Positions 7,276-56,377 are shown, numbered from the stretch's first letter. The stretch is DNA of 64,000 bases from Rhizaria sp. SCN 62-66 (GCA_001724265.1 MEDY01000108.1:1-64000), one strand, 5' to 3'. Translations and numbers: made by a program. Notes: generated by a model not told the origin, from the letters alone.

Positions 7276-7331
7276 AGTTGTTGGTGCTTACGTTAGATCG
7301 AACTTGGGAGCAAAACACCAAAAAAGAAGTG

Positions 7332-7404: not shown

Positions 7405-9134
7405 TGTGTTCTTGTTACATTCACTTGATTATAACGCCAAGTGAGATGCAAAAGAAAAGGTTCAAGAACTTCACCGAAGCGAAGACCTGAAACTAATGCT
7501 TGGACAAAGCTTGGAAATTTTGTATATTATATGGCATACCTGGAAGATCGGGCCAGTTTCGACCTCGGTAAATGAATCGGGATAATAAACCATACATAAG
7601 CACTGAATGAACATAAATAGATAACAACCTAAAAGAAAATGTTGACATCTATAAATAAGCATGTGTTGTTTTCGAGTTCAGTGACTGATATGGCCTAATT
7701 GTAGCACAGAAATCTGGATTCGGGTGGAGAGTTGACGCTTACTAGTAAGTAAGCTTACTAATGCTAGCATCGGCGAGGCTCAATTCTCGACTTCGATAGT
7801 TCGCTTTGATAAAGCAGCTAGTGAGCTATTAGAAAGTTTATCAAGCGTTAATACGTGTTGATGATGCTCTGAAATTTGTTAATTGTCAATACTCAGACGT
7901 AATTGAACTAGAGCAGCGCTTTATGTCACCTAGCCTGAGTGACCATCAAGATACGCCTGTTTCTCCTCCTCTTAAACGCGACACACGCCTCGAATACTGA
8001 AATACCACATGCAAGACTTGTTTATCTCATTTATTCGCGTTGAATTTACTATGTTTTATTACCACAGCTTAAAATGATGCGAGCTGCAGTCGCCTTTTAC
8101 AGAGGAAGCTTGATGGACTCGTAGGAGTAACTGTACTAGTAGCGTTGCACTTCCCCTCCTCTCTCGGCATCTCTGTCATCTGTCCGACGTTACGTTCTCG
8201 TTCCCCACGGGTAACCGCGACGCGTTGTTGCGCTTTATCGCCGTTGTGCCCGTGTAGTGTAGCGCAAAAAGTGGTTCAGATGCTCCAGATAGTGGTGGAA
8301 AAGAAGCTTGGGCTGACAACGAATAAGGAGTGGGAGAACGCCGTCAAAGTCGTTGCTGTCGTCATTTCACCCCATCAAGCGAAAATCCCTCGGTTGTCAC
8401 AGTAGAATGTCGACCGTGGCAAGGGCCTTCCTTTGTATTTTATCAGTACTCGTGACGGATGCCGCGGTGTTCTTGGAACGCCAATGCCGGATTGGAAGTG
8501 AGCAGCTCACGTGCGCACGCATTTGATATGCAGACATGCCCACAATTGGTTATATTGCGTTTGTGACTGCGTCTGTAACTCTTTTGAATTTTGTTTTGCG
8601 TTGCACGTCTGTTTGGAAGCCACGGATTGGCATCAAATGAAACGTTGTAAAACGTCATAGGCACGTACTGTTGTGGTGAAAGAATAGCAGTGATGTAAAT
8701 ATTGTAACTAAAGTACATGTACAAAGATACCGGGAATGTTGCAAAGCTTCAAGAATCACACGCGTACTCTTGTTCAAACAAGAGTAGCAACTTTGAGAGG
8801 AAACAAACGAGATTTATGTATTAGAAAAAACTATAATATACCATACATTACCAAACAGTTCATCACGCATATGAAACACGGACAACAAAATACAAATACT
8901 TCCCATCTTGAACTAAACTTCAACTATAACCGCTATGTCAGCAGTCTACGTATTCTTCGCACCTAGACATGGCCACATACATCGTCCTATCTCCACTCTA
9001 TCTTTCTTCTCTACAATATTTCCTCGTGCCTTGTAAGCAGGAAATAGATCCTCTGACAAGGCACATCTCAGTACCTTCGCCGCCCATGGTGGCAGAGATC
9101 ACCTACGTATCTAAGTACCTCCTTGCATCGAGAC

Positions 9135-11171
9135 TTACTTGCCGCCGCCCATGGTGGCCGAGAGAACCTCCTCCTCTTTGAGGTGGCCCTGCAGCACCCG
9201 CAGCCGCTGCCGTAGCGCGCTGATCGAATCCGCCTTCTGCACCAGCAGATCATCCAGCAGCGTAATGTACTGGTCGACGCTGTGTCCCATCGTGTCGAAC
9301 CGCTTCATGAGCTCCATCTCCTGCTTCACGATGCGCATCGTCGCGTCGATGTGCAGGCGGTGGCTCTCCATCAGCGCCTCCTCTTCATGCATGATCTTCA
9401 TGCAGAGCTCGCTGTGGGTTTTGGCCAGGTCACTGCCGTACTCGAGCTTCACGCCGCCGCCAGAGCCGTCGTCGCCGTCGTCGTCGTCGTCGAGCAGGAT
9501 GCCGTTGTTGCTGTTGTTGTTGAGGTCGATCAAAGAGTCATTGCTCGGGTAATCGATGTTGTCGTTGTACATATCCTTGCTACCACCAGCCTTACCACTG
9601 ACAGCGCCAGCGGCAGCGCCAGCGCCGTTGTTCTGGTAGTGGTAATTGCCGGCGACAACGTTCCGCGGTGCCGCCCCGTTATTGTTGTTGTTTGCGGCGG
9701 CAAACCGCGGGTGCTGCGCATAGCTCTCCGGCACAGCGCTGGGGTTCACGCTGCCGTGCGCGGCGGCGGCGGCCTGTTGGGCGGCGGCGCTGGCCTGCTG
9801 CGCGCGGCGCTGGCGGTCCTTCTCGGCGTCGACCTTGGCCTCGGCCTTGGCCTGCTCGCGCGCAACGGCCAGGCGGTCGTGGTGGTTCAGGATCGCGTCC
9901 ATGTCAATCTCGTCGTCCTCTGTACCAAAGCAAAAAACAAACAGCAACAACAACAACAAAAAAGAAGAAAAAAAGAAGAAGACATAAAGAGAGAGTGAGA
10001 TATGTTCACAATAGGACAAAAGTTGATCTAGTGCTATACAGTCTCAACGATTTAAAACGAAACAACAAATAAAGATAGAGCATCACAGAATATAAAATTC
10101 AACGCAATTAAAAATTATCTCGACATAAAAAAGCTCCGTTGTTTCGGGACTCAAACGGACCTTCTTCGTCGGGCATGGTGGCGTGCTGGACGCCACGCTT
10201 ACCCATGTGCGGCATATACGCGGCCTTACTTCCCGACGAGCCCTCTTCCTTGAGCTCCTTAACGCGGTCGGCGTAGCGCAGCGTGTTGAGCGTGTGCTCG
10301 CACGCGCCGCTGTTGGGGGAGATGTTGGCGACCATGATCGTGCGCGAGTTGCCGACGAACGAGTCCTTGAGCACCTGCGTGAGGGTGCTGGCACGAAACG
10401 GCAGGTGCTTCCCGCCCTGGTCCAGCGCGCGGATGCACTCCTTGAGCGCGAGCAGCGACTTGTTGATCTCGGCGCCCTCCAGCCGCGTCCCACGGTCATT
10501 GTTCGCTGTGTCAACGCCGCGCTCGGAGCCGGCCAGGTCGATGAAGGAGAACTTACCGGCGGGCTTGAGCACCTTGCGCTCAGCTCCGGTGCCGAAGCGC
10601 TTAAACTGGATCTGCACGATGGCGTGCGAGCGCGACGAGTCGACGTTGGCGCCCGTGACGCCGGTCGAGCGGATGGAGTTGCCGTGCGTGATGTGCTCGA
10701 GAAGCTCGTCGACGGAGTTGACGCGGAAGTCGAGCAGACCGACAATGTTGACGGCCTTGGCGGCGTCCTCGCGGGCGACAAGCCGCGCGCGGGCGTTGAG
10801 CAGGTCGAACGGCTTGCCGCCATAGATCTCGAAGAATGACACCCACACCTGGAGGTCCGCGTACTGCGGCTGCTCGAGCATGCGGAACATGTCGCTTGCA
10901 GCCAGCGCGTAGAGGCCGTTCTGGTACTGCTTGCCGCCGCCGGGACCCATCATCGTGAAGGTCTTGCCAGAGCCCGTCTGGCCGTAGGCGAAGCAGGTGG
11001 CTTTGCCGTTGTTCATGGCGAAGGTGACGAGAGGACGGCACGTGCGCTGATAAACATCCTATAGATCATTGAAGAAATACAAAGTGAAAAAGTGAGGATA
11101 TAGAAATAATAAGTAATAATCTTGATAGATAATCTCAATTTATGTTGTTATACATTGTTTCTTGGTTCCTG

Positions 11172-11217
<46 letters not shown>

Positions 11218-12098
11218 ATAAACGTACCTCGTTGTTAGAGTCCTGGCCGAAGACTTCGTCAAAGATGAACTTATGACTCTCGACATACTTGGTCAAGTCA
11301 ACCTTGACTTTGGGCTCGTGGATGGTGCACGTCTGCGCGGTCTTGCCCGCGGAAACGACGTCAATCTCACCACGGTTACGTTCCTTAGTCGACAGGGGGC
11401 GCTTGCGGACGGCGACGCGGATCTTGGACCCACTGTTAGCGATTTAAAAAAAGGTATAGTATGTGCATAGAGATAACTGTAAATTGATATAGAACATAGT
11501 ATTCACACGTATTTACTAGTCGATCATATTAAGTTAAGTCAAATCTGTGCATATCAAAAATAGAGATGGTCAAATGTGTGATTTAGTGCTAAATTTGTTC
11601 GTACCTGGAGTCGCCGAGCGAGCCGCGCATGTCGCTCCAAACGTCACGCTGCTCGCCACCAGCAGCAGCGGCGGCAGCAACAGCGGCGCGTGGCTGCTGC
11701 TGCGGGGGCTGCTGGTAGCGGCTGGGCGCGGCCGCGGCCGCGGGGGCGTTGTTGTAGTTGTTGGTGGGGACGCGGGCGACAGGAGGCTGCTGCTGCGGAG
11801 GCTGCTGCTGTTGCGGCGGGGGCTGGTAGTACGCGGCGGGGGCGGCGGCGGCGGCCGGGGCGGCGGCGGGCGGCGCGTGGGAGCGCGTGTCGGCCTTGGC
11901 GAGCTCTGTCTTAACGACTGTGACGAGCTTGTACAGCGTGCGGCGGTCCGAGGGGTTGGTGACGCCGAGGGCGTCGTAGTCGGCGAAGGTGAGGTCGGCG
12001 AAGTTGGACTCGTTGACGCCGGCTTCGAGAAAGCGCGGGTAAAAGCGGCTGAGGCCGGCGGTGTGGAGCCAGAGCGCAACGCCCTTCTTGTCAGCCAT
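9135..12098 (-). CDS. Kinesin-13 (KIF2/KIF24-like microtubule depolymerase) with N-terminal SAM-like domain. Exons 12098-11605, 11432-11228, 11058-10161, 9919-9135
   Basis: [14 protein letters not shown] finger ([13 protein letters not shown]), P-loop [32 protein letters not shown] (KEC motif) and a C-terminal coiled coil. Splice phases are consistent and the gene ends TAA. Confidence 0.95.
11172..11216. repeat. (GAT)n microsatellite in a kinesin intron
   Basis: About 15 perfect GAT units. Confidence 0.95.
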
Positions 12099-12863
12099 GG
12101 TGGGACGGGTTGGGGGGATTCAACAACGCAGAGCTCAGGGGTCTGTGATTCTTAGTGACGCGTGGAGTGTTCGCGGTTAGATGAACAAAGGATGGAAGAC
12201 TGGTGTGGTATAAGAAAAAAGACAATGCATTGTTGTTGTGAAACGAAGTGAGATTGTTTTGGAAGGAGATCAGACAGAGATATGGAAGGAGTTGTGAGTG
12301 GGGGCGGGAGAGAGGCGAAGCAACGGCTATGGGGGAAACGGTGGATATACACAAGCTCCGCTGAATTAAAGAGACAAATAAGTTAATCAATGGCTATCAT
12401 CAACATAGAAGTTACTAAATCGAGTAGTATCAGCGCTGTCTGGCCTTTTTTCTCGGGCAAATCTAGATAGAGGGAATAGGCGGATGTGAAGGAGTCGAAT
12501 CAAACAACACGCTCCTGCGAACACAATGAAATAGAGAGCCTTCCAGTTCCTTCAACGCACTGACAGTTGATAAATAGAAAAAATGTACATGCTTCCTTTC
12601 GACAATAAATGAAAAATGCATACGGACGATTGTTTTGGTCGTCATTTAAAGCCCTCGAGTGTGTGATGCCATCACTCTGTCCGTTGGCTCGTGGCCGCCT
12701 CCGTTCAGCCCACGGTCACTTGCCAGATCCTTCGTTAAAATAGCTTTTCACTTGATTGCAGAACAAAAATAAAAGCCTATTGTGACGAAATTTGGATTTA
12801 TTGTATTAATTTCTAGTTCATATTCAAATATATGAGTTTGACGTTCTCACTGTCTATATACGC

Positions 12864-15637
12864 TTACCAATCCCGCGCAGAGTCCCGATCCTCCCTCCTG
12901 CTGCTACTGCTGCTGCTACTGTATGACCCACGGCTGTAGTCGCGGTCGCGGTCACTCCGCTCACGGTCACTGCGACTACGGTCACGGTCACGGTCGCTCG
13001 AACGATCGCGCTCACGGTCACTGCGCTCACGGTCACGGTCGCGGTCACTACGGTCGCGGTCACTGCGACTGTCACTGCGGTCACGGTCACGGTCACTAGT
13101 GCGGTGGTGGTCACGGTCACTCCGCTCACGGTCACTGCGCTCACGGTCACTCCGCTCGCGGTCGCGGTTGTCACTGTGTCGGCCGCTGCTGCTGCTGTTG
13201 CTGCTGCTGGTGTTGTTGTTGTTGCTGCTGTAGCGTAGGGGGTTCTGCAAGTAGCCACCATTGTTGTTCCTGTTATAACCGGCGCTGCTGCTGTTGCTGC
13301 TGTTGTTAGCGCTGCTAGAGTGCGCCTGACGGTGTTGGTTATACCCACCAGTGTTGTTGGCGTTGTTGTTGTTGTTGTTGTTGTTCTGGTGGCTATAGGG
13401 TTTACGGTGTTGGTTATAGCTGTTATTGTGGTAGTTGTGTCCCGCCTGCTTCTTATGTTCCTCATACGGCACGTTCGGATACGTCATCTCCATCCGGGTA
13501 AGTACCCCCTTAGACGGCGACGACCCGTCGTAGCTGCCCACTTCCTCGGTACTAAGTAGGTCCTGGTGTAAGTACCCCAGTCCCCAGTCCCACCACTCGA
13601 ACGGAGGCTGGGTCTTGGCGGCCGATGTAAGTACCCCCTTACCCGCGTCGGGCACGATGGCCATCTGGCGGTCGTCGCGGCCTAACTTCTGCGACATAAG
13701 CCGCACGACCCGCACTTTCCCACTGTACGCCGCCTCCAAGGGCGTGTAGATGCTCTGGTCCTCGCTGCGTTCACTGATGAACAGCGCGCAAGGAGGGCAC
13801 GTGCCGTCAGCCGGCGGCAGCAGCGGCAGCACGGGCACGGGCGCGCCAACCTCACGACTGGTGCTGCTGGCCTTATTGTTGGTGCCACTGACAGCGTAGA
13901 CGGGGGCAGGGGCGCGGCGGCTTAACTTAGCCTCGAAGGTCTCTCTCTTATCGTCGCTATCTGCCATTGCACTCGCGCTCGCACTGGCCTCAGCCTCAGT
14001 CTCGGTCTGAGTCGCAGTCTTGCTGTCCGAGCTGGCAGTGTCACTGTTGTTCCGGGGAGTGATCAAGTTGAAAATGGCCTCGGTTGTGTTCTTATCAGTC
14101 ATATAGTGGTAAAACACGTACGATAGGATGTAAAAGTCAACATACACGTGCCCATTCGCATCTTTCGTAGCGGCAGGCGGCTTAACGTCTGCACCAGAGC
14201 CAGAGCCAGACTCGGGTAAAAGCCGTTCCAAGTCGCGCATGGCCTCATCGACCTTGCCCCTGACATTCGCGGTACTTAGATCCTCCGCCTCCGCCACGCT
14301 CTTGCCGTTCTCGTACATATCCCAGACGGAGAAGCCGATGCCGAGCCGGTTGCAGAGCCCCTTCCAGCTGGGCTCCAAATCAAGTGATAGCGCCTGCACG
14401 GGGGGGAAAAGCGGGCACAGGGTTCCAAAAAAGTCGCGGAAGGCGAGGAGCTCGTACCCGGGGCCGCCGCCGAGGGACGCGACGGTAATCGCGCGCGGGG
14501 CCGCGGGGGGCTCCAGGTGTGAGTCTAAGGGGGTACTTAGACTGTTCGCCGCGAGAGAGAGCTTGTGCCGCTTGAGAGCGGCTGCGTAGGCAGTGTGGGC
14601 CGCGGTGTACGGGAGGAAGACGCCAGCGTTGTATGCGCGCTGCAGCAGAGCGTAGGTCTCGGTGTAGCGCTGGATCGACTTGAGGGTGATGTAGGCCTTC
14701 TGGAAACCTGCGGAAACGCAAAGAGCGCGTGAGTGGTCAAAGCAGAGAGAAATAAAAACACAGAGTAAAGATGCATGAGCGAAGAAGGGATGAGATATCT
14801 TCTTAAATTCACATTTCTATAACAAAGTAATATATGTCGTTAGTTGTTGGGTTTTGAAGCGCAGCGCGTACCGGGCAGGCCGTACTCGTGCTGCGACCAC
14901 GTGACCGTGCTGCTGCCTTTGTTTGGCTTGCGGCTGTAGATCTCCTCGCCCTGCCGCTCCTGCGCCGCCAGAGAGGACCCCGGCCCGCTCCGCAGCAGCA
15001 TCTGTTCCTGGCAGTGCGCGAACACGGGCGCGTTGGCGGCGAACATGCGGCACAGCAGCTGCGCGCCGTGGGGAGTGGTCGTGAAGGGCCACTTCTTGCG
15101 CCGGTCGGCGAAGTAGTGGAAGACGCGGGCGAGCGGGCTGAATTCGATGCGGTCGCGGTACTGGGGCGGGATGGACATCTCCGTGAAGTCGCGCTGCCCG
15201 CCGCCGCCGCTGGTAAAGCGAGACTGAGACTCAAGCTGAGACTGAGAAGAGTCAGAGTCTGAGGTCTGGGGCGGAAGGCCGGGAGGGTAGGGAGGAAGGG
15301 GGGTGGCGTCCAAGACACTCGTGTCGTACAACATGCTCAGATCGCCTGCAGTTTGCGCTGCGGAACAGGGGGTAGAGCTGGCGTTGGTGGTTGCGGCAAT
15401 GCGGGAGACGGAAGAGAAGAGGAACGAAGCAGCAGGCTTAGAAGAGGAAGCGGTGTTGGTGTCAGTCGAAACCTGTTGCTGTTGCGGCTGCTGTTGCGAG
15501 TTCTTATCAACGTTTGCGTGCAGGCCAGAGTCAGTAATTTCGACTGTGGTTGAACAAGTCGAAAGGGCAACAGCGGAAAGACCGCCGGGCGGGGTCGCGG
15601 ATGCAGGGGGCGCAGAGGCGGGAGTGTTGGTGCTCAT
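12864..15637 (-). CDS. Putative class I SAM-dependent methyltransferase with a C-terminal Asn-rich and RS/RD-repeat tail. Exons 15637-14872, 14707-12864
   Basis: Spliced translation gives ITVASLGGGPGYELLAF (motif I), ALSLDLEPSW (motif II), FSVWD and DFYILSYV. The tail has DRERS/DRDRS repeats. Ends TAA. Confidence 0.7.
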
Positions 15638-16278
15638 TGCGTGGCAGGCAAGAGAAGCTCTCCAAGGGCGCGAATCGGTGACTGAATCTCGAGGGGGTAC
15701 AGCACGAAGTTTAAAGTCTACAGAAAAAACAAATAATACAAATAAGGAGTTCAAAATAGTTTTAGTTTGTGATTGCGGTGATCTTTGCATTAAACGATCG
15801 GAATGTGTCTTTCTTGGTGATGGATTTTATGTAACCGTCTCGCATGCTGGCTCGGCCTGCCGCAAGGCGCTAGACTGAAGTCCACCACAAATACCAATCA
15901 CCCGATCACTATGATAGAAGAACAAGTCAAAACATGACAAAAATGATGCACGGTATAAATCAAGTAATTTTGTATGTTATATTCAAATTCAGTGGCGTAA
16001 TTCAAACATCACAGAGAGATATCATCTGCTTTGTCATAACGCAACGGTTCGCAACACACACAAAATCACGATGTCTCAACGTCAAATCATTAAGTAATCA
16101 AATTCTAGGTAAATCAAAGCCTATATAAACCCATATTCCATATGACGTCTCAAGCTCGCGCACACCTCAAACCAATAAGCCCGCTGAAAACGACCTTTCT
16201 ACCATGCAGAAAGTCCTTATCCATGCGCTTAAGTGCACAGCTTACACTTAGATCCCTCGCGTACTTAGCGCTTAGCAC

Positions 16279-17306
16279 TTAGAGGCTCTCACGCAGGAAC
16301 ACGTAGTTCCTCTTGGCTCTGATGGCGGCCTCCAACCGGGCAAAGTGCCTCACCACTGCGCGATAGTACGCCGAGAAGAGGACAATCTGCAGCGGCGTGA
16401 TGATCGCGGTGCCAATGAGGTGGATCAACGACGTGATGGTGACGCTGCTATTACACTCGTCGTACGCGGACTGAGAGGGCGCCGTGCCGCAGTAGAAGCC
16501 CGCAGAGGTGAGGTTCAGGATGCTGATGCCAACGCTGCACAAGAGGTACACGAGGAGAAAGATGACGTAATTGCGGATGCCGCGGAGGTCGTACCGAGTC
16601 GTGTTGTGCAAACCTACACAAAACAGTAAGTTTAAGCGCAAAAATAAGCCAAAAAGGTAATAAATAGTAACCTACTTGCGCATTGATTCTAAAAACATGT
16701 TATATTTCACAATTTGGTCAGTCACTAAACATTACGAGGTTTTAAGTGCATTTAAAGAGTTTTGTTATTGCGTACCTTCGATACTGAAAATCATGCCCAA
16801 AACGCCCTGGACAACGGCAAGCACGCCACGCGCCGAGCCCGTGAGATAAATAGTGAAGCCGAGCATGATGACACACAGCACTTTGACGTGCCAGTTCGCA
16901 GGCTTGGAATGCTTGAGAGCCGACGACATGTCGTTGTTACTGAACAAGTCAGTATTGTCACTGTTACTGGCATCAGTCAGATACGGCGTATAGCTACTGC
17001 TGCTGCTGTTGCTGTTGTTCGCGTTGGCAGTGTTGCGGCAGCGGCAGTCGCAAGCGCGGCAGCAGCAGCACCAGCACGATTTGTTATAACAGCTGTTTTG
17101 TTGCTGCCGCTGCTGTCGCCATAGCGTGCGCTGCTGCTGCTGCTGCTGTTGCTGCTGCTGGGTGAGATGGCCGCCGGAGCCGAAGTTGTAGTTGTACGTA
17201 TAGTACTGCTGTTGGCCGGCGAGAGAGCTCGCATTAGCGTTCATAATACTGCTGTTGTTGCGGTTGTTGTAGTGATTGACTGTGTTCAGCGAAAGGGGGT
17301 AGTGAT

Positions 17307-17347
<41 letters not shown>

Positions 17348-18726: not shown

Positions 18727-19748
18727 TGCTCTCAAGCGTGGGAGATGGCAAGAGGCAGTCGAGTTGGGGGCAGGGTTGAACGGCGACCGCTGTTAGTGAA
18801 AAGAGAGATTTGGAAGGGAAGACCTCCTCCTCTAAAAGCATAATTAAAATAAAATAGAGATTTGTAGTTAATAACTTCGTTGATATCGCGGCATTTTGTT
18901 TAACGGAAATTCAATATCACTGCATATGTTCTTGCTCCACTACCTCGCGAGAATGTGACAAAAATGACAGCCTGAAACCTGTTACCGTGTCAAAATTCAC
19001 ATCTTAGCCTGAATACGTTCATGATATCACGCCATATCACGGCGAATCAAGGATATATGATTTTTAACACATATTTGTATCTATTGTAGAGCGAAAACAC
19101 GGCCAAGACCTTATCTTGTTGCACGTATCTCTCCTCAAACAAAGGTTGTTGTCGCAGTCATTTCTTAGCTTCTCGCGTTGCGTCTGCGTTTGCTGCCGCT
19201 ACCAATACCAATGCTGCTGCTCTTGACTACCGCTGTTACTACAACTCGCAGTCTCTCGCGGCGCGATAGTTCATGATAGTTTGCAAAGCGCGACATAGAG
19301 ACCTGATGATGATTGCAATGTTGTAATGCAGAGTGACAGTGGCAGGGATATGAAAACAGCAACAAAATAGCAAGAAAGCACGATTATCGTGTTTTGCCAA
19401 CAACAAAAAAAAGAGACAAAAGGCAACACGTGATTAACTGCAGCAATGCCAACCGCAAAATCACACAGCGAAAACAGACTGAAAAACATACAGTCACAAA
19501 GTGAAACACGAACAGAAAGTGCAACAAAACCAACACAACAAAAAAGAAAACAAAACACAAACAACATATAAAAACGAAAAATCAACAACAACAACAAAAC
19601 ACACTCTAAGCGCCCTTTGATTTCACACACGAAAATATACTTAAAACAAACGCATTCGCGCGTTTCTAGACCCATACACTAGACCTTGACAACAACTGCA
19701 CCCGATGGACGACGGTACTCGGACGCATGTAAGTAGCACCCGAGGTAC

Positions 19749-35951: not shown

Positions 35952-36322
35952 CGGGCACGATCACCGGGATATCTCTATAGAACAAGGCGCTGCGAAAACA
36001 TAATTAAAATAGATAGTATATTAGTACATATATTTAAAATAATGCTTTGTAGACGTTTAGTTTGACGATTATATATGAAGGTCAAAAGGCGGGAAGATGA
36101 ACCAAGTTTGAAAATTAAAGAGCCGTTGAGACTTGCCGCTCGTCCGGTCTGTTGAGACCCTCTCGGCCACATGAGACACATCATTGCATATCTTGACCAA
36201 ATATATATAGTATATAACTTGTGAATTCACAGCATTCTATTTATTGTACATATTCTAATACCATAAAGTTGGATTTCAACTTATAGTAATATATCAAAAC
36301 AAGATATCGACTTAAATGTGCG

Positions 36323-40765: not shown

Positions 40766-41410
40766 TGCGACGCCCTCCTCACAACTACCTCGAGAGATGA
40801 TTATGTTTAGGTTTCAGTATTGATAGACTTGTTTGAATAGGTCTTTTAGTGGGCTGACCATGGAAGTTTGAAATAATGGAGATATAGCGTATTTTGTGAG
40901 AAATGAGTGCCACGTCGACAGTCCCCGTGAACCCGCTTACAAAATCAAATTAACGCAGCGCTAAACAGATGATCATAAAATAAGCTTGCATTTTTTAGAT
41001 GTTGGCCATTTTTTTAAATACTGATGATATTGTTTTGTTCCTAAAATCAACGTGATAGCTGATACATAGATGTAAATCGATGTTCAAGTCAGCCTCCCTG
41101 AGTGGCCAATGAGTGACTGTGGGCACTCTGACTGCCTGGCCAAGAGTCGGGAGCACTCATGATGTAGGAAATTACTTGGATTGCGTCTTCTTTTGCGGGG
41201 AATGATCTGTTGATTGCATATTTATTTATTCGGACATACCTCGCTTTCTCTCGTTGACTCAATTTCTTCCTGCACTGAAGATTGAATTCCTTGCAAGCAA
41301 GGCCGCTCCAACTCACCGACCTTGGCCCTCTCGTTCCGCTTTTTTTGCCTTCCCTCTTTCGCTCGTGCGCAAATTCTTCTTGCGGTCATATAAACTCAAA
41401 CGTTGAGCAG

Positions 41411-42625
41411 ATGCAAGTTGGGGCACAGACCCACACCTTGGAGGAGTGGCAGGCGGCCATCCAGATCACGGTCGACGCCGTGCGTTCCGGGGCGCTCGAG
41501 CTTCCCACGGGACTCGCGCGCAATACTCTCCTCACAACCTGCCGCTTGCCCGATGGCGGCGCCGCGCTGCTGCCGGGCTTTCCCGAGCTTCCGTTGGGCA
41601 CAGAGCTTATTGCGACGCAGCAGACGTTCCACTTGGTGTCGCACATCGACGCCCTGCACGAGGTTGTCAACACAGGCAACAAGGACACTGTGTGGGCCAA
41701 ATTAGCGCGCAGGGATATGCTCGAAAACCATCCCAAGGAGCTCCAATCGAACTACATTAAGCCGGTTGCTGTCAGGCTGGATTCGAAGATGTACAAGGGC
41801 GTGCTCGTGCACGGCATTCCGGGCCGCGGCAAGTCGGTCGCCCTCAACTTTGCCATTCTTCACTTCATCGCTAAGGGCGCGCCCGTCGTGGTCGAGCTGG
41901 CGGGCGACCGCGTCATCTACGTTCCTGGCGGCGGCGCGGGCGCTGTGGGCGTGTATCCGGCCAAGGGCTACCGCGGCGGCGTCCCGCGGGAAGTGATCAA
42001 CGCTGTCTACCAGCCCCAAACGGTGTACTTCTACGACCCGCAGCAGCAGCCGTCGCACTTGGTGGGCGTGCTGCAGCCCATTGCCAAGGCGACATGCACC
42101 GTGATGCCCACGATGCCGAACATGAAGCTGTATTTCTCTATCCACACGTACCGGCTCCTCAAGCTGCACCTGTACGACCTCACGTGGGCCGAGTTCGCTG
42201 CCGTCGCCGGCGTGCTCAAGCCCAACATGACGAAAGACGTCGTCGACGCGCACGTCGCTGCGTACGGGACAAACCTCCGGTGCCTGGCCGGCGAACAGCA
42301 GTGCCGAGAATTCACCGAGCAGCTTGCCGCGGCGAAAGAAGCGTTCGCGTCAGACCGGCTGTTCTCGGCCGGACTCAACACGGACGAGCTGTTCAGCGAG
42401 CGCAGTCTAATGCACCGCTTCTACGGTCTCTGTCGACCGGCCTCCATGCGCGGCGGTACTGAGGGAATGTACACAGCTCGGCCGTACTGCAACACAGAGG
42501 TCTCGCGCAAGATGCACGCGGACCTGCAGCGGACTTATCTTGCAATGTGCGCAGTGTCAAAGGGGGACGATATCGCACCCGGGGGAAAGTACACGCTGGC
42601 GACGATTCTAAGCGATAAACTTTAA
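41411..42625 (+). CDS. Crinkler/RHS-type P-loop NTPase domain protein; start uncertain
   Basis: Walker A VLVHGIPGRGKS, Walker-B-like TVYFYDP, then TVMPTMP, LYDLTWAEF and YGTNLRCL, in the order typical of CRN-type NTPases. No intron in the ORF and no low-complexity inserts. Ends TAA. Confidence 0.6.
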   Translation: MQVGAQTHTLEEWQAAIQITVDAVRSGALELPTGLARNTLLTTCRLPDGGAALLPGFPELPLGTELIATQQTFHLVSHIDALHEVVNTGNKDTVWAKLARRDMLENHPKELQSNYIKPVAVRLDSKMYKGVLVHGIPGRGKSVALNFAILHFIAKGAPVVVELAGDRVIYVPGGGAGAVGVYPAKGYRGGVPREVINAVYQPQTVYFYDPQQQPSHLVGVLQPIAKATCTVMPTMPNMKLYFSIHTYRLLKLHLYDLTWAEFAAVAGVLKPNMTKDVVDAHVAAYGTNLRCLAGEQQCREFTEQLAAAKEAFASDRLFSAGLNTDELFSERSLMHRFYGLCRPASMRGGTEGMYTARPYCNTEVSRKMHADLQRTYLAMCAVSKGDDIAPGGKYTLATILSDKL

Positions 42626-43328
42626 GCGTGGACGTAAAGTCTCTTTGATTACTGACCTCATTGGGCCAAACACACCCTTCTGGTTTGTGGTCGCCGTAAC
42701 GCATTCGCACGAGTGGTTGTGATGTCGCTCGTAACGGATGAAAATAACCCTCGCTAAGCAGGCAAACTTATGAGCAACATTAGCCTCGGGTGCTTTGTCA
42801 GGGAGCGGAGTCACAAGATCTTTCACGTAAATGGAGATTTCGCTGCGCGGCGCACGGGCTGCGGCCGGAGGTGAGCGACGCCGCGCTCGCCATGTATGCG
42901 GCGAAGCACGTACGAATCTGCGGTGATTGACCGATAGTACGAGCGCGGCGGCGCTGCTTGACTTAGAGTCTGCGTACGTCACACAACAGCAGCAGGCGCA
43001 ACAGTAGCAGGTGACTGACGTGTTTGCACCCCCAAGCGGTACACAAACTTTCTGAGTAAATGACATTGCCGCAGCAATGGGCAGTACAATATTGAAATAA
43101 GCTCAACGTTACATTTGCATATTCATTTATTCAATGGCGCATACATATCTGTTGATCTTGAGTAGAAAACCGGATGAGTACCTCAGGACTAAAAGGATTA
43201 CTAGCTCGCCGGACCAAGTCGCTCCTCCTGGTGACGTGGGCAAGACTGGGACGGATTTTGAATAGTGTGAGTCGTTTTTAGCTGATCGCTAGTTGTGATT
43301 TACCTTTTCTTCTAAGGTTTTAAGCAGC

Positions 43329-44808
43329 ATGTCCTCTCCTGGTACGTATTTAAATGACCAAGAAAAGCTTCTTTTCCCCGCCATATCCTCTCTCAAACAC
43401 CTTCGCTCTACAAGCCCGACTCTCGTCCTCTCTCGGGCCTCATTTCCGCTTTGTTCCGCACTGCTGCTCCATTTCCCCCCTCTTCAAAGACCCTGCTGCG
43501 CTTCACTACATTTCTGGTGTCGTGCACAACTACGCTTGGGGCCGTCCCGCCTCATCCTCGATCATCCCCACCCTCCTCACCAACTCACAGCCTTGGGCCT
43601 CTGCCTCTAGCTCAAGCGCGAGCTCGAGCTCTAGTTCGGGCTCCAAGAGTGGCGATGATGGGAAGGTCTACGCAGAGCTGTGGTGGGCCACGCACCCCAA
43701 CGGCCAGTCCCGCATTCTCCCGTCCTCTTTCCTCTCACACAACAACAACACCAACGCTAATACTGACGTTCACACTGACGTGAAGCCGCCTGTTGCTGCT
43801 GTTGCCGCTGAGACTGCTGCACCGATCGCCGAGGCCGACTGCCCGAAGATCCAGCAGACTCTCCTCAACGGCGCCTCTCTGCCCTACATCCTCAAGGTCC
43901 TCTCCATCGACACGGCTCTCAGCCTGCAGGCGCACCCGAACAAGCACTTAGCCGCCGCGCTGCACGCTAAGTACCCCGAGGTGTACAAGGACGGCAACCA
44001 CAAGCCTGAGCTCGTGGTCGCGCTCGCGCCCATGCAGGCCATGTGCGGCTTTAGGCCCCCCGCGGAGATCCTGCGCTTTGCGGAACACATCCCTGCGTTC
44101 CAGCAGTTCATCGGAGCTCAGGCCTTCACTGCACTCCAGACTCTCACTAAGGCAACCACTGAGCAGCAAGAGCAGCAGGAGCAGGAGCAGAAGCGTGTGT
44201 TGAAGCAGGTGTTTGAGTTTGCGATGCGCAACGAGCAGACCACGGTCACCCCCTTAGTCGACCAGCTGACTACTTACATGCGCGACGTCGTCGTCTCACA
44301 GACACAGTCCGAGACTGTGTCCGTGGCGCTAGCGCAGCTCATCCTGTCGCTGTCCACGCAATACCCGCACGACATCGGCGTCTTCGGTCCTCTGCTGCTC
44401 AACTGCATTGCTCTCGCGCCCGGACACAGCGTGTTTCTGCAGCCCGACGAGCCGCACGCGTACCTCAGCGGCGAGTGCGTCGAGATCATGGCCGCAAGCG
44501 ACAACGTGGTACGTGTGGGACTCACGCCCAAGTTCCGCGACGTCGGCACGCTCGTCGACATGCTCAGCTACGAAGTTAAGCCGCCCAGGATTCACGACGG
44601 CGCCCCTGTAAGTACTCTGGCTTTTCCCTCGTCATCATCCCTCTTAGATGCGGGCTTAGACGCGGGGTTTAAGCGTTGGTTTAAGGCGTATGCGCCCCCG
44701 TTTGAGTTCCCTGAGTTCATGGTTCTTGCTGGAAACATCCCTCCCTACGCGCAGGAAGTTAAGCCGCCGCAGGCTGCTGAGAATGAGGCTAAGCGCAGCT
44801 CCGACGCC

Positions 44809-44840
<32 letters not shown>

Positions 44841-45201
44841 TGCTAGCACGGATGATTCGAGCAAGGGCGAGGGCTTTGGAGTCATTCAGCTGCCTGTCAT
44901 GACGACACCCTCATTGCTTGTCTGTATCAAGGGCTCGGGCTCTGTCACCTTCACTCGTGACAGTGATGATAACAACAAGGCTGACGCTAACGAGAACTCT
45001 GCTGCGAGCGGAGTGTTTGAGTTGCTGCCTGGCGCGGCGCTGTTTGTTCCTGGCGGAGTGCGTGTAAGTGTCACTGCGAGTCCCTTAGACGGATTGAGCA
45101 CCTACTTAGCCTGCGAGAACATCGCGGAGGTGTCTAAGGGGGTCACTAAGTATGCCGAGGATAAGTCGAAGGAGATGTTCCCCTTTGCCGTCATTGGGTA
45201 A
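43329..45201 (+). CDS. MPI: Mannose-6-phosphate isomerase, class I. Exons 43329-43341, 43490-45201
   Basis: NYAWG, YAELWWATHP, LPYILKVLSIDTALSLQAHPNK, YKDGNHKPE, EPHAYLSGECVEIMAASDNVVRVGLTPK. Ends TAA. Confidence 0.96.
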
Positions 45202-45978
45202 GTAACTCTACAGCCTAAGTACCCCTGCTCTTTGTATGCGCAACAATCCTTGTTCATTGTTGTGTTGATCTATGGTTTGTTTTTTCTGTTGTGTTAGTTA
45301 GCTCTCTTTGTTGTCATATGATCGTTACTTATTGTGCGTATTATCGTTGTTAAGCGGTGCATAACTGCCACTACTGTTGTGTTTTTGTGTATGTTCGAGG
45401 TTTACGCATGCTGCTCCGAGACTGTCACTGACTACTGTGTGTTTGTGCTTCCTTGTTTGAGAATCTTAATATCATAATGTAAGCGTAAATGTAAGTGCAA
45501 GTGTGTCTCTTCTGAGCGGTGTAAGTAAGCCTCTGTCTGTGTGTGTTTTTTGTCTATGAGTGATTAGCATTGATGCTGCAACTTTTGTCGTGCTAAACTG
45601 TGCTTATAAGTGATATTTTGCTTCCTAGACCTTGTTTTAAGTACCGCTTAGGCTCTGTGTGTAAGTGATACTTAGACTGGATGTTTAAAGTGCGACTTAG
45701 ACGAGGAATACAGAGCAGCTTCAACTTATTCGTGCATGTATCAGCACAAAGTTTGACTAGAACACAAGACACACGATGGAGCGCGTACACAAACCAAGAC
45801 GCGTGGCCATCATACAAGACGGCACAGCACAAGCAAATATCAGTCACAGTATAAAACTTCGTTGCAGTTGCAGCGACACCCAAACTTAGCCTCATGAACA
45901 ATAACACAAATCGTGTGTCAACTCGCCTATTACCACGCTCAAACTGTTCTCTTTGTTGCTCACACACATTGTACTCAT

Positions 45979-47317
45979 ATGTTCCCTCTCACTCTTGCTT
46001 TGCTCTCCCGGATAAATGACGACTCCAGTCGGCCAAAATAGGCGACAAGCACGTGCACCTCTGCTAACACCAACTCTAAAGTCACCCCCTGCCATGTCGA
46101 CCTACCTTAGAGGCTTAACTTCGATAAAGTCAAGTCGCGCCGTCATGGTTTGGCGCGTGTCTCTGGGCTTGGCAACTCGTTTCTGATCCTCGATGTAAGT
46201 GCGAAGGAGTGTAAGTGTGTCTGCACGTGTACGGGTAAGGGACTTCGCAGTGGCTCTGACCTCAAGTGCACGTGCGAGTGTGAGTGTGGCTACGTGCCTT
46301 TGCCACGCTTGTACTCACTCGCAACACGCTCGAACAATTGCAAAAACAACAGCAACGGCACGAGCACTTCTGATGCAACAGCTGGGATCTCCTCTAGTGA
46401 CAACTCGAACCCTTTGCCATTGTTCCCCCCTCTCAGCACTGCTTACATCTCTGAACTGTGCTTAAGTGCCGGGACTGATGGCTTCATTGCCATCATGCCA
46501 GAGACTCTGCTCACAGTGAATTGCAATAGCAGCACCATCAATAACAATAATAACACCAAGAACAGCAACAGCACCAGCACCAGCACCGGCATTGCTGACA
46601 GCACTTACACTGCTTCTCCAAGCCACAGTGCTCCGATGGATCTAAGTACCCCTGCCTCGGACACTTACATCTTCCGTCTGTGCAACAACGATGGCTCTGA
46701 CGCTGAGATGTGTGGCAACGCGGTGCGCTGTGCAGCCGCCTACTTAGCTAGTTTAAGGGGATTGTCGTCGACGGCATCTTCACAGCAGCAGCAGCAGCAG
46801 TCTGCGCAAAACGCCCCCTGGCCTTGGCGGCTTGACTTTGATACCGCCGCAGGTGTCAAGCAGTGCCTCATCAAGAAGCCGCCACTGTCGTTTTTGTCGT
46901 CCTCCCATAATACGGAGACGGGGGACGTGGAGTGGGAAGTGGCTGTGGGCATGGGCAAGCCGTCTCTGTCATCGTCTCAGTACCCTCTTAGCGCAGGACC
47001 TTCTCCGGTGACATTGAGGTATTACACACCTCTTAGCCCAACACACCTCCTTACAATGCCGTCTAAGGGCGTTGATCAATGTGACCCTCAGCGCGTTCCT
47101 GTTATCGCCACTGCAGTCCTACCTCTACCTCTTACTGTCTGCCCCTTAGGCAAAGCCGGCACGCCGGTCCCTCCGCCGCCGCTGCCCCCTTATCTGTCTA
47201 AGTTCCCCTTTTCAGACGCGCCGCAGTTCGAGAGCGTAGGTATGTTCTTCAAGGCGTGTATTGTCGACACAGGTGTGCCCCACTGTGTGATCTTCTTTCC
47301 CCCCGCCTTCAAGAACC

Positions 47318-47349
<32 letters not shown>

Positions 47350-48072
47350 TTGAAGAGTGATAAAACGTATGTGAACGAAGACGGCTCGACTTCTGGTGTA
47401 AGTACCTCTAGAGGCGACCCTTACACCGATTTCCCGCCGCACTGCAACGCGTTCTATTACAATACGGACGTCAACGCCAACTGCGGTAACTCTGCTGCTG
47501 TGACACCGCTGACTTGGGATGAGGCAACAAACCCTTACATTTTTCCTGCACTGACCTCCCGTCTAAGTGCCCACCCGTATTTCCCTCGCGGCTGCAACAT
47601 CGAGTTCGCACGCCTCCAGCTTACACCTCCATCGCCAACTGTGAGCGATGGAAGGGTGTACTTAGACGTGGAGATCCAGTCCAAGGTTTGGGAACGCGGC
47701 TGTGGTGAAACGCAGGCCTGTGGCACTGGCGGCTGCGCTGTGGCCATCGCGGCGGCGCTAAACTCACTTCTTACCGCTCCAAACAACAACAACAACAACA
47801 ACAACAGCAGCAGCAGTAGTAACGACAGCATTTTAAGCACGAACGTTTTTTCTCCAGTCTATCACGTCAAGTTCCCTGGCGGCAGTATGTCCGTCAACTG
47901 GCCTCTGTCTGCGACAGCGACATTGACGCCCATCAACAGCAGCAGCAACAACAACACGGCAGACATAGAGGTGCCGACTGCGGCTGAGTTGCAGTTGGTG
48001 CCGGATATGATCAAGACAGGGCCGGCGGTGATCCACAACAGCTTGACGGTTTGGGCCGATATGCCATTTTAA
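45979..48072 (+). CDS. dapF: Diaminopimelate epimerase with large low-complexity insertions; the only upstream in-frame ATG (45979) is reached through two TAGs (46039-41, 46108-10)
   Basis: SGLGNSF, NNDGSDAEMCGNAVRC, VDTGVPHCV, FPRGCNIEF, VWERGCGETQACGTG, FPGG, TGPA. Both catalytic Cys are present. Ends TAA. Confidence 0.9.
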
Positions 48073-48438
48073 AATAACGCTACATACTTACGACAACCCT
48101 ATTTATTCACAGTAATACAACGATCCTCATATGCATATCATCGCTTTTCTTACTCCCACCACAAACGACTTTTGCTCCTACTGGGCTGAGCCCAGCAAGT
48201 CAGCAAACAAGGCACGTGAGCAGCCTTCGCGTTGCCTTCCAGAACAGGCACTTTCCGTCATGAAACCCAGATTAATTTGAGACTTCCAAATGCAACCCGC
48301 CGTGAATCTTCTAAATCGTTTATTCTATCTTCACATCAAGTTTCCATGACGACCTATGCGTCATTTCGTTTCTCTTTCTTACCAATCAAATCGTTACCAC
48401 CCTACGTCTCGCTATCTCTCCACTCTAGGCGCCCCAAG

Positions 48439-50709
48439 ATGCGATTCCTTGCCCGAATCCTTCTTCCCGCGCTTCTCTGCTCATGTTTTGCCCTTGCGCT
48501 TACCCGCAGCGCCGTCGGCTTCTCTTTCGGCGACGTCCCGCCGTCCGACGCTGAGAACATGACTGCCGAGCAGGCCCACAAGCAGGCCATGGTGCACGCC
48601 ATGGCCAACGACGCGCGCGCCGCCGTGCCGTACTTCCGCGTTGCGGCCGAGCGCGCGCCTCACGTTCCCTCGTTTCGCAACAACCTCGGCGTGGCGCTTA
48701 TGCGCAGCGGCAACTTCCCCCATGCGCTCGACGCCTTCCTCACCGTCCTCCGGTACGCCCGTTCGCCAAGCAAGACTATACCTCTGCTATGTATTCTTTG
48801 CTGAACATAAAACGTCTGCAGTATAACATAATACTTTATTATATATCTAATTTCTTAAATGTGTTCTTGTTTGTCAGAATCTTGTTCATGATATCCTCTG
48901 CTTTCTATCACCTCTACATTTTTTCTCATTTTCTCTCTCCCCTTGCCACGTATTTCGCCGTGTACGTGCCCACACAGCCTGGACCCGAACAGCGCCGACG
49001 GAAAGGACAACCTGAAGGAGCTGTACAAGCTTTGGCCGAGTATGGACGTCGACGCGACCGCCGCAGCCGTCCTGGGCGTCCCGCAGACGGTCATGACTAT
49101 CGACATCTCCGCGACAGGGCAGGTCAACATGAACAAGGCCGCCGCCAACGCCGCCAACAACGGCAATGGTGGTGGGGGTGCGCACAGTCACTTGCTCGAC
49201 ATCGAGGACGAGGCGGATGAACTCTTCAACTCCCTCACTTCCTCCTCTAACAAGAACTCCAATATCAACAATGAGAAGACGAAAGCTAGTGCAGTTGAAC
49301 TTGATGAGGATGCCTTTGGCGACGACGACGAAGAGGACGACCAGGACGAGAACGGCAACCCGCGTCAGCGCCAGCCGCGTCTAAGTACCCCCTCATCCTC
49401 AGCCGCGTCTAAGGGTGCTGCGGCGGCGGCGCCCCCAGGGCAGCGGTGCCCAGCCGACAACTCGCCGCTGCCGCTGCCCCCGCACGTGACCGTGGGCGCC
49501 ACGGGTCCCGCGAGCACCGCGCTGCCCGCCGGCGTTACCACCCACTGGCACCCGCCGGGACGCGAGAAGTTTAGCCGCCGGAACACCAACCCCCGGTCCC
49601 GGTTAACGCGGCTCACAGTCTCCGAGCTCAACCTGCCGCAGAACCGCGTCTTCCGCCTCGGCCGGCTGCCGTTCGTGCTGGTGCCCGACTCGACCGCGGA
49701 GAAGCCGTTTCTGACGCCCGCAAACAAGCGCTACGTTGAGGGGGAAGAGAGCGCCGTCGTCGGCGACCCCTTAGACGCGTCTAAATGGTACCCCTGGTCG
49801 CCGCAGGACCTCGCGCAACGGTTCCCGCACGCCATCACCGACTATTACCCCGTGAACATGGCCGTGGCGGATGTTAAGCCGTACCTAACCCCCTTACCCG
49901 TAGCCGTTCGCGAGATCCTCACTCCGTCTAAGGGTACTTACCCGCCCGAGGACTTAGACTTCCCTGGCCGGTACATGCAGTGGAACGTGCGCGAGCGCGA
50001 CTGGGAGGTACTTACCCGCGATGTAAGTGCCAACCTCCCGCAGATGTTCCGCCAGGACCGAACCTGGCTCACCCAGTGCCTCGGAGACCCGCATCACAAG
50101 GAGATCGTCTCGGCCGAGTCAAACCCCGTGGCGCCGCCGGTCAACGACGACGGATCGTCGACGTCATCGCTGATCGAGGAGTTCACCACGAAGCTGCACT
50201 GGCGCATGGTGGTTATTGGCACCGAGGGCGCGGGCATGTTCAACCACTACGACGTGCTGCCCACGGCCTCATTCCAGCTCCAGGTCCACGGCGCTAAGCG
50301 CTGGCACGTGTGTGCGCCCGACCAGCGGCCCTTCCTCTACGGCGTCGCTGGAGGGGTCGACGCCTTCTACCCGAAGTTAAGCCGTCATCCGGCTTTCGCG
50401 CACGCGCGGTGCTGGGAAGACGTGGTCCGGGCGGGCGAAATCATCTTCTACCCGAAGTCTTATTGGCACCAGACGGAGAACCAGATCACGCCCTCGGTGG
50501 CGTACTCCAGCTCGATCCTGCACACGGACTCGTACAGGGACATCCGGGATGAGCTGCGGCAGGTGTGCGCGCGGGGGAAGTTCGGGTGGAAGTTAAGCCG
50601 CGGCTTGTGTTCGAAGCTCGAGGAGTCGTGCTACCCGCTGTGGGAGAAGATGTATGGCGGGGGGAAGAAGCAGGCGGATGAGGTCGCGATGGACGATGTG
50701 CTGCAGTGA
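48439..50709 (+). CDS. Signal peptide + TPR + JmjC (cupin) 2-oxoglutarate oxygenase. Exons 48439-48752, 48978-50709
   Basis: Hydrophobic N-terminus MRFLARILLPALLCSCFALALT, TPR-like FRNNLGVALMRSGNFPHALDAF..LDPN, JmjC GAGMFNHYD..VHGAKRW..GEIIFYPKSYWHQTEN (HxD...H). Ends TGA. Confidence 0.85.

Positions 50710-56324: not shown

Positions 56325-56377
<53 letters not shown>

Follow-up and report, generated by a model that had tools for sequence, protein, structure and literature searches.

Short DNA words that override the choice of codons, and even of amino acids, are textbook cases in a few bacteria, where they reveal a machine that reads DNA (uptake receptors or methyltransferases) and a drive that spreads the words. 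To our knowledge, no eukaryotic nuclear genome has been described in which translated, strand-blind words are as dense as those considered here, which occur in a 64,000-nucleotide stretch of DNA from Rhizaria sp. SCN 62-66 (GCA_001724265.1, MEDY01000108.1:1-64000), the whole of which is called the window. With about even confidence, the 9-mer STAAGTACC (S, C or G) is regarded as the most frequent of several short duplex-DNA words that form a family specific to the lineage and share the half-site GT-S-TAAG.

The uptake signal sequences (USS) of Pasteurellaceae and the DNA uptake sequences (DUS) of Neisseriaceae are fixed 9- to 12-mers which occur within genes in both orientations and in several frames. 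In the relevant passages of one study, the tripeptides encoded by USS are about doubled and USS are placed in poorly conserved genes and residues (PMC2817400); in those of another, related lineages differ in the 'dialect' of their uptake sequences (PMC3630211). The words of the window are similar in all these respects: the tripeptide SKG is raised (14 versus 3.0 expected), words in the phosphomannose isomerase (PMI) gene lie in less conserved columns (0.40 versus 0.58), and the C:G ratio at S is 17:8 in the window versus 8:18 in a second metagenome, which is a dialect-like difference. Unlike in USS/DUS, the host is a eukaryote with introns, and there are several word families and an inverted form with two half-sites. 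The drive of USS is uptake followed by recombination; here, neither a DNA uptake system nor a counterpart of that drive is known.

In the parts of one study that describe the highly iterated palindrome HIP1 (GCGATCGC) of cyanobacteria, this word shows a 15- to 300-fold excess in and between open reading frames (ORFs), is neither a peptide motif nor an RNA motif, and is thought to be selected (PMC5861425); parts of a further study tie it to orphan methyltransferases (PMC4390886). STAAGTACC is likewise a short word in heavy excess (~45-fold) in and between ORFs. Unlike HIP1, which is a perfect 8-bp palindrome and periodic over 10–90 kb, it contains an asymmetric half-site, and its host is a eukaryote with no methyltransferase known to act on it. 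Hyper-abundant words are characterized by an excess of at least ~15-fold and by occurrence in both orientations, in several frames and beyond codon usage, and all of these are found for STAAGTACC (25 sites versus 0.55 expected in the window, and 7 versus 0.17 in the second data set). The words would thus work like USS/DUS and HIP1, but membership in the word systems of competent bacteria or cyanobacteria was rejected because genes for kinesin, WW, EF-hand and USP5-like proteins, together with AT-rich GT..AG introns, mark the host as a eukaryote. In the literature on HIP1 and uptake sequences only bacterial cases were found, and the exact words, among the matches listed, are primers or constructs.

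Two other systems are more distant. The pairing-centre and dosage-compensation motifs of Caenorhabditis elegans are chromosome-specific 12-mers which are bound by zinc-finger proteins and lie mostly outside coding sequence. These resemble the present words as short eukaryotic duplex-DNA words in either orientation and in regional clusters, with hundreds of copies and dedicated proteins, but are not known to leave an imprint on proteins, whereas 22 of the 25 STAAGTACC copies here are translated. The Rickettsia palindromic elements are in-frame selfish insertions of 100–150 bp in genes; they too are translated palindromic DNA in ORFs, but the units here are 9–20 bp long and are substitutions in PMI.

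Excess of the words in the window

Over-representation was measured against 100 dinucleotide-preserving shuffles of the window, with both strands scored. STAAGTACC has 25 exact matches, whereas the shuffles average 0.55 and never exceed 4. The preliminary description of this DNA had placed at least 24 such sites; all 24 coordinates are right, and the 25th site is at 43967. The S position is C in 17 sites (C form) and G in 8 (G form), and only 2 extra NTAAGTACC sites begin with A or T (2 of 27). Related words, also described before as common, are indeed in excess: CCCTTAGA has 16 matches (0.94 expected), GTTAAGCCG has 16 (0.60 expected) and TGTAAGTG has 23 (2.03 expected). For the half-site GTSTAAG, 59 matches are found versus 13.5 expected.

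The quasi-palindrome STAAG-N6-CTTAS has 7 matches versus 0.16 expected; these comprise the six sites reported earlier and a seventh at 54547. The 10-bp distance between its AA and TT is as had been pointed out, and follows simply from the N6 spacing. Location in exons applies to 22 of the 25 STAAGTACC sites, which lie within long ORFs (14 sense, 8 antisense); sites 9111, 19744 and 45215 lie outside long ORFs, and words cluster also in non-coding DNA at 45.46–45.71 kb. Both orientations occur inside single ORFs, for example in 12867–14816 and 30393–34829. The individual sites are the following.

9111..9119, plus strand: C form, outside long ORFs
13498..13506, plus strand: G form, antisense to ORF 12867–14816 (minus strand), read SKGVLT; left part of a full element
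13568..13576, plus strand: G form, antisense, read GYL
13627..13635, plus strand: G form, antisense, read GVLT; full-element variant ending CTTAC
14271..14279, minus strand: C form, sense, read LST
14532..14540, minus strand: C form, sense, read LSTPLD; within the full element 14523–14542
19744..19752, minus strand: C form; the TAA of the word is the stop closing ORF 19752–20345 (minus strand)
21807..21815, minus strand: G form, sense, read VST, in the EF-hand ORF
22878..22886, plus strand: G form, antisense, read GTY; partner CTTAGAC 21 nt past TAAG
28303..28311, plus strand: C form, sense, read LST, in the USP5-like gene
29014..29022, plus strand: C form, sense, read TKY
30617..30625, minus strand: C form, sense, read SKY
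32134..32142, plus strand: C form, antisense, read VLR
32164..32172, plus strand: C form, antisense, read VLR
33033..33041, minus strand: C form, sense, read LST
33734..33742, minus strand: C form, sense, read AKY
34002..34010, minus strand: C form, sense, read LST
35231..35239, minus strand: C form, sense, read SKY
43967..43975, plus strand: C form, sense, read AKYP, in a well-aligned PMI block; absent from the earlier list
45215..45223, plus strand: C form, non-coding, 14 nt past the PMI stop codon
46642..46650, plus strand: C form, sense, read LSTP
47398..47406, plus strand: G form, sense, read VST
49381..49389, plus strand: C form, sense, read LSTP, in the JmjC-like gene
49933..49941, minus strand: G form, antisense, read GTY; belongs to a short variant of the full element, with CCCTTAGA at 49927–49934
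50007..50015, minus strand: G form, antisense, read VLT

Imprint of the words on coding sequences

The coding set consists of 27 long ORFs (37.3 kb). One control was a synonymous-codon shuffle which keeps the amino-acid sequence and codon usage (n = 300); the other was a shuffle preserving every codon-pair count (n = 300), which is conservative because the words themselves feed the codon-pair counts. Under the synonymous shuffle, STAAGTACC occurs in the ORFs 14 times in sense versus 0.78 expected (largest, 3) and 8 times in antisense versus 0.25 (largest, 2). Under the codon-pair-preserving shuffle the expectations are 2.1 and 0.43, respectively, and the observed counts were reached by none of the 300 shuffles. 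Four word families are enriched on sense and antisense strands alike under both shuffles. TAAG-oriented words stand at 44 sense to 24 antisense, and coding compatibility alone predicts a similar ratio of 3.26 to 2.41. In an unbiased word scan of the ORFs against synonymous shuffles, the words enriched beyond codon repeats are almost only those around TAAG, including TGTAAGT (18 versus 0.8), GTCTAAG (19 versus 2.1) and TAAGTAC (18 versus 2.2), and, for the other strand, GTACTTA (11 versus 1.2) and CTTAGAC (9 versus 1.4).

The preliminary description had proposed a DNA-level code lying over the protein code, and had named loss of the enrichment under control for codon-pair and amino-acid usage as one outcome that would speak against it. 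No such loss occurred, as the enrichment persists under both the codon and the codon-pair control, and this part of the proposal is supported. Likewise, the words occur in both orientations and in different frames as had been noticed: the 14 sense copies read [L/V]ST in 7 cases and xKY in the other 7, and the antisense copies read VL[R/T], GTY or GYL.

The use of otherwise rare TTA and CTA codons is also evident. Per 1000 codons, TTA (9.1) and CTA (6.6) are rare compared with CTC (22.8) and CTG (21.7), and 43 of the 101 TTA codons sit in CTTA. Third codon positions in the ORFs are 67% G+C, and the A/T-rich words put A or T at third positions, opposite to this prevailing bias. The peptides SKG, LST (20 versus 7.7 expected), GVL (13 versus 3.8) and GLT (17 versus 4.6) are raised 3–5-fold overall, and 11 of the 14 SKG peptides are spelled TCTAAGGG. 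A peptide imprint, as proposed before, is borne out by these four; for SKY it is not (3 versus 1.2, not significant).

Anatomy of the half-site and the 20-bp element

The 20-bp element GT[C/G]TAAGTACCCCCTTAGAC consists of two half-sites inverted and 6 bp apart. STAAGTACC and CCCTTAGA are the two halves of the 20-bp unit GTCTAAG-TACCCC-CTTAGAC, variants of which are at 13627, 33469, 33493 and 49927. Full elements and STAAG-N6-CTTAS units are located as follows.

13496..13515, plus strand: 20-bp element in the G form, with GGGTAAG as its left and CTTAGAC as its right arm
14523..14542, minus strand: complete 20-bp element GTCTAAG-TACCCC-CTTAGAC; two inverted GTCTAAG half-sites with a 6-bp gap
33469..33508, plus strand: two STAAG-N6-CTTAS units (GTAAGAACCCCCTTAG, GTAAGGACCCCCTTAG) starting at 33469 and 33493, in a 24-nt tandem repeat
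37986..38001, plus strand: STAAG-N6-CTTAS with a different spacer (GTAAGCCCCACCTTAG)
54547..54562, plus strand: STAAG-N6-CTTAS (GTAAGTGCGTTCTTAC), absent from the earlier list

The tails of the half-site fall into the classes TACC, GGGG, CCGC and TG, of which TACC and GGGG are inflated in the tail count because this includes the searched elements. The base before TAAG is selective: GTCTAAG occurs 32 times, GTGTAAG 27, GTTTAAG 12 and GTATAAG 2, and the second data set shows no enrichment of GTWTAAG (6 versus 4.4). When duplex DNA is read through the minor groove, G.C and C.G are tolerated but A.T is not. The consensus is sharp, with 8 copies of GTCTAAGTACC compared with a total of 18 for its 33 one-base neighbours, and 10 of these 18 differ at the first three positions; the 24 single-base neighbours at positions 4–11 have at most 1 copy each.

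A gap of 6 bp dominates between inverted half-sites, with 28 cases, 22 of which are copies of the searched 17-mer element. The other spacings of 4–14 account for 1–3 cases each, and zero spacing (TAAGCTTA) for 7. The idea of a dimeric protein site, raised in the preliminary description, would fit this anatomy, given the preference for the 6-bp gap in the window (7 versus 0.16). Half-words outnumber full units there by ~4–5 to 1, and solo STAAGTACC copies have no leftover second half downstream. Partners of the half-site one helical turn further out, at TAAG+21, are seen in 3 cases, which are too few to use.

With its 7-bp inverted arms, the C form folds into a hairpin of 8 bp (−8.8 and −10.9 kcal/mol). 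Of the 25 full copies, 13 are in the G form, which breaks the stem while the right arm stays as it is and no change compensates; the G form folds no better than its own shuffles (z, −0.38 and +0.06). A hairpin function in RNA or DNA was rejected because the stem is broken in these 13 copies without covariation. As the stem is not kept and the G form folds like its shuffles, it is sequence that matters and not structure.

Nucleosome positioning, another of the functions suggested at first, is not borne out. For 723 TAAG/CTTA sites in 110.8 kb, the top spectral period is 2.99, which is the coding period of 3; weaker peaks are found near 9.5 and 11.4, and there is neither 10-bp phasing nor a 150–200-bp wave.

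The words in other samples and in a second metagenome

Of the 13 STAAGTACC sites in 30901–50900, 12 are spanned by listed DNA contigs of two further studies, with 0–1 other letters per piece; contig joints at (CAG)n/(CAA)n repeats with short sides were left out. None of the six listed differences between samples falls in a STAAGTACC site, and one, 33474 A>G, falls in the spacer of a tandem element variant. As the words are unchanged in the contigs of two other studies, they are not an artefact of one assembly.

The second data set was obtained by scanning metagenome contigs with the 17-mer TAAGTACCCCCTTAGAC, which yielded 23 loci. Eighteen of these come from one metagenome and are similar in appearance (G+C, 0.51–0.67; (AAC)n tracts). 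L004, L019 and L020 (G+C 0.36–0.39, taken as chance matches) and L010 (from another record) were dropped, and only the non-overlapping tail of L012, which overlaps L011, was counted. The flanks of 25 unit copies (those of the loci and the window's two) are mutually unrelated; all that they share is (C)AGT[G/C] ahead of the core, and behind it they have nothing in common. With the searched unit masked, the 47.2 kb of flanks contain STAAGTACC 7 times versus 0.17 expected, AGTTAAGCC 7 versus 0.25, TGTAAGTG 7 versus 0.91, CCCTTAGA 8 versus 0.63 and GTSTAAG 29 versus 7.5, so that the pattern recurs in the lineage beyond the window.

Among the loci, no orthologues are shared with the window. The relatives' proteins P0122 (78% identity, kinesin) and P0002 (41%, PMI) lack STPLD, SKGVL, KYPLR and LRGYL. 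In viral contigs, no match to the 17-mer was found, and the 14-mer GGAAGTTAAGCCGC has only single matches per contig, as chance would give; loci L024–L103 were left out of use.

Proposed recognition of the words

The best explanation is that a sequence-specific protein reads these duplex-DNA words and that either selection or a repair or conversion drive maintains them, as a eukaryotic parallel of USS/DUS and HIP1; its chance of being right is put at one half. Several features suggest that duplex DNA is recognized, and not RNA or protein: both strands are enriched, some copies are non-coding, the consensus is sharp, S but not W is accepted, and the inverted spacing is fixed without the stem being kept. 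Something appears to favour the words, be it selection for binding or a bias of repair or conversion, because they are A/T-rich within G+C-rich codons and far above their one-base neighbours.

We infer a reading protein, and either selection or drive as the keeper of the words. A sequence-specific DNA-binding protein would read each half-site, with one protein per half-site and two on the full element. The high copy number would be kept by selection for binding or by a repair or gene-conversion bias in favour of the word (molecular drive). The words would arise by base substitution where the encoded protein tolerates it, and codon choice, and even amino acids, would bend to the word. A more specific version is tentative and rather doubtful: the words may spread by a conversion or repair drive, or be selected because they identify 'own DNA' in recombination, repair or chromosome pairing, with a dedicated DNA-binding protein, lineage dialects and several per cent of residues rewritten in tolerant proteins.

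Several observations weigh against protein recognition of duplex words. The four tails make the half-site resemble several different sites, not one. Word density is uneven, being high at 30–35 kb and 44–51 kb and nearly absent from 1–9 kb, which is not obviously easy to square with a chromosome-wide structural signal. In the window, 12 of the 14 C-form copies in ORFs are sense and 6 of the 8 G-form copies are antisense, which a purely strand-blind model fails to explain; the second data set is without that bias (G form, 13 sense and 4 antisense; C form, 3–5 sense and 3 antisense). In ORFs of at least 190 aa in the window and the second data set, STAAGTACC is sense 30 times and antisense 15 times. 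The data are limited to the 64-kb window and 47 kb of flanks, and the putative recognition by a protein is read from sequence statistics.

If a reader protein exists, the words would offer a practicable way into a new system of genome-wide recognition in protists, and a natural experiment on how much DNA-level pressure proteins can absorb. The words are also a sharp k-mer signature for binning the lineage from metagenomes.

Alternative explanations

An unlikely alternative is a signal at the RNA level, in which the words mimic a 5′ splice donor (TAAGT being +2 to +6 of GTAAGT) and bind the U1 small nuclear ribonucleoprotein (snRNP) without being spliced, for example to suppress premature 3′-end formation or to cause nuclear retention. 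As in the exonic U1 snRNP sites of telescripting, the core TAAGT is a donor consensus and GTAAGT is sense-enriched in the ORF set (20 versus 4.4; TGTAAGT, 18 versus 0.8, as above). The tetramer TAAG is raised in sense (133 versus 91), whereas CTTA is not (114 versus 113), likely real introns have GTAAGT or GTATGT donors, and an RNA-level component is possible because of the sense-to-antisense ratio of 30 to 15. However, the antisense strand is about as enriched as the sense strand (8 versus 0.25 or 0.43 for STAAGTACC; 7 versus 0.44 or 0.23 for GGCTTAACT), and the C form dominates: 17 of the 25 copies begin with C, which pairs with U1 no better than A or T does, yet A or T is found in only 2 of 27. 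Moreover, the GGGG and CCGC tails are not donor-like, and the words occur in fixed inverted pairs. Avoidance of splice donors, suggested by the strand bias of the C and G forms in the window, was dropped because the G form is mostly sense in the second set (13:4).

Contigs of a poly-A metatranscriptome are collinear with the window over 49064–49779 and 45140–45399 and ungapped at the words, and the same run covers 34703–34922 unspliced, i.e., most of a putative intron at ~34681–34859 (minus strand). As this library may contain DNA, the run is silent on splicing and editing, and stretches that lack RNA coverage do not count as evidence.

Equally improbable is a neutral mutational by-product: where coding DNA is rich in repeats and under weak constraint, local slippage, template switching or short duplications ('cryptic simplicity') would regenerate the same words, which nothing reads. 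Clustering at short range is consistent with such an origin: pairs of words per 10 nt number ~92–112 below 30 nt and fall to ~40–55 beyond 170 nt, and STAAGTACC pairs at most 1 kb apart have the same orientation in 9 cases and opposite orientations in 3. So are the 24-nt tandem repeat that carries two element variants (33469, 33493), the richness of the window in (AAC)n, (CAG)n and hexamer-periodic repeats, and the position of words at poorly conserved residues. In PMI, the lower conservation of word columns is significant (Mann–Whitney p = 0.024), in this one protein only. By contrast, identical 9- to 17-mers in unrelated genes and in 18 contigs of another metagenome, with unique flanks, are not expected from local slippage, nor are a consensus far above its one-base neighbours and A/T-rich words which run against the third-position bias.

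An insertional origin is considerably less probable. This would make the 20-bp unit a miniature mobile element, the footprint of a transposon or what is left of an intron family (GTAAGT...TTAG), with the half-words as its decayed remains. The 25 copies of the 17-mer core in unrelated, unique flanks would agree with insertion, as would the inverted arms and hairpin of the C form and the GT start and AG end of the G form. But no flanking direct repeat is visible beside any of the 25 copies, and a miniature mobile element was rejected on this lack of a target-site duplication and because the 7-bp arms are present only in the C form. The GT...AG ends are present in the G form of the full element and absent from the C form, to which 17 of 25 sites belong in the window and 8 of 26 in the second data. 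A spliceosomal (micro-)intron was rejected because removal of a 16-nt GT..AG stretch would shift the frame, and ORFs run through it for hundreds of codons; in locus L015, the Pfam domains TBCC_N (56–125) and TBCC (341–439) flank the unit at residue 320 in one frame, indicating that the stretch is not removed.

Among the 19 distinct unit copies of the second metagenome, 13 read [V/L]STPLD, 2 read KYPLR and 4 read SKGVL on the other strand. The PRMT5-like ORF of locus L011 carries two elements, and has no match among solved structures. When PMI is aligned with 59 homologues, at least 80% of the sequences fill the columns of 17 of the 29 residues that words cover, a test which concerns half-words; as these columns are well filled, the words in PMI are substitutions and not insertions. 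For instance, site 43967 encodes AKYP where a relative has ASYP. The lack of a residual second half in solo STAAGTACC copies, and the preponderance of half-words over full units, also argue against decay from an inserted unit.

A cause at the level of translation, i.e., selection for out-of-frame stops ('ambush') or codon-pair preference, is highly improbable: although every word has TAA or TAG in one frame and TAA is raised in the +1 frame (99 versus 75), off-frame stops are in no overall excess in the ORF set (+1 frame, 343 versus 370; +2 frame, 694 versus 693), the enrichment persists with all codon pairs kept, GGTACTTAC is enriched though stop-free in every frame, and words occur outside ORFs too.

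Related words

The sites of the related words, and the densest runs of words, are listed below.

13918..63908, GTTAAGCCG, 16 sites: 13918−, 14178−, 17890+, 21243+, 22114+, 31801+, 31879+, 33571−, 34072−, 34197+, 44575+, 44758+, 49873+, 50376+, 50592+, 63900−
13507..58909, CCCTTAGA (reverse complement TCTAAGGG), 16 sites: 13507+, 14524−, 30814−, 30874+, 33478+, 33502+, 35317+, 45082+, 45133−, 47062−, 49408−, 49768+, 49927−, 58816+, 58848+, 58902+
2053..63772, TGTAAGTG, 23 sites, some from Cys-Lys-Cys coding repeats, e.g. 46210 and 56146
45040..45165, plus strand: six family words packed closely within the final 50 codons of PMI
45460..45710, plus strand: dense run of family words, non-coding, between PMI and the next gene

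Five of the 16 GTTAAGCCG sites carry the 14-mer GGAAGTTAAGCCGC. At 34196–34215 and 50591–50610, this 14-mer runs on identically into GGCTTG to form the perfect palindrome AAGCCGCGGCTT, so that the word can also be read as TTAAG-N6-CTTG. The word TTACCCG is sense-enriched in the ORFs (12 versus 2.4), often as CTTACCCGCG adjoining other words (regions of 13627, 35231 and 50007), and presumably resembles Reb1-type Myb sites. Hexamer-periodic repeats (CACGGTCAC and relatives) lie at 12950–13160 in ORF 12867–14816, where 9 of the 18 window copies are found; similar repeats in several loci of the second metagenome are the only cross-matches between the data sets.

Host genes and minor observations

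The window is eukaryotic, as its introns and its kinesin-13, WW, EF-hand, USP5-like and PMI genes indicate. It encodes a kinesin-13 motor, a WW protein, an EF-hand protein, a protein kinase, a USP5-like ubiquitin hydrolase, PMI, a DAP-epimerase-fold protein and a JmjC/cupin protein. Exons are G+C-rich, and AT-rich GT..AG stretches with in-frame stops, read by eye, resemble ordinary introns, the likely ones having the GTAAGT or GTATGT donors mentioned above. The best named matches of the kinesin-13 are from plasmodiophorids, Acrasis and fungi, i.e., from several supergroups, at 60–66% identity, and none of the 80 sites of STAAGTACC, CCCTTAGA, GTTAAGCCG and TGTAAGTG lies inside the conserved kinesin motor exon (10111–11058). 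DNA of the window is present in metagenome runs from bioreactors, wastewater and activated sludge.

PMI (43354–45198) has 615 aa, compared with ~400–450 in homologues, and contains long low-occupancy inserts. In the USP5-like gene (26953–28716), the UCH domain is stretched ~two-fold relative to the Pfam profile. Seven tRNA genes are found in the window. The cluster at 3353–7404 includes Ser(AGA), Lys(CTT) and a duplicated pair of Ala(CGC) and Ala(AGC) at 4281–4500 and 7203–7404; Gly(GCC) is at 55148–55221, and a 132-nt tRNA at 53579–53710, perhaps with an intron, is called by Rfam alone and not by ARAGORN. Read depth shows 40- to 2400-fold spikes at (CAG)n/(CAA)n repeats (37571–38237 and 46242–46908) in all four mapped runs, presumably due to cross-mapping from many organisms.

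Single in-frame TAGs on coding strands join long open frames at 27979–27981, 36584–36586, 37688–37690, 38096–38098, 58886–58888 and 62230–62232, and a further one is found around 1775 (minus strand) in locus L021. The alignment of the USP5-like protein to human USP5 crosses the TAG at 27979 unbroken. CAG directly follows the TAGs at 36584, 37688 and 62230 and that in L021, and those at 36584, 62230 and in L021 are within or beside CAG/CAA runs. Frames of at least 100 codons in the window are joined by TAG 7 times, by TGA 3 times and by TAA twice, although of the three stop triplets TAG is the least frequent. In this host, TAG may stand for glutamine or may be read through. In the loci of the second metagenome, the joining stops are TAG in 10 cases, TAA in 9 and TGA in 4, which is a weak excess.

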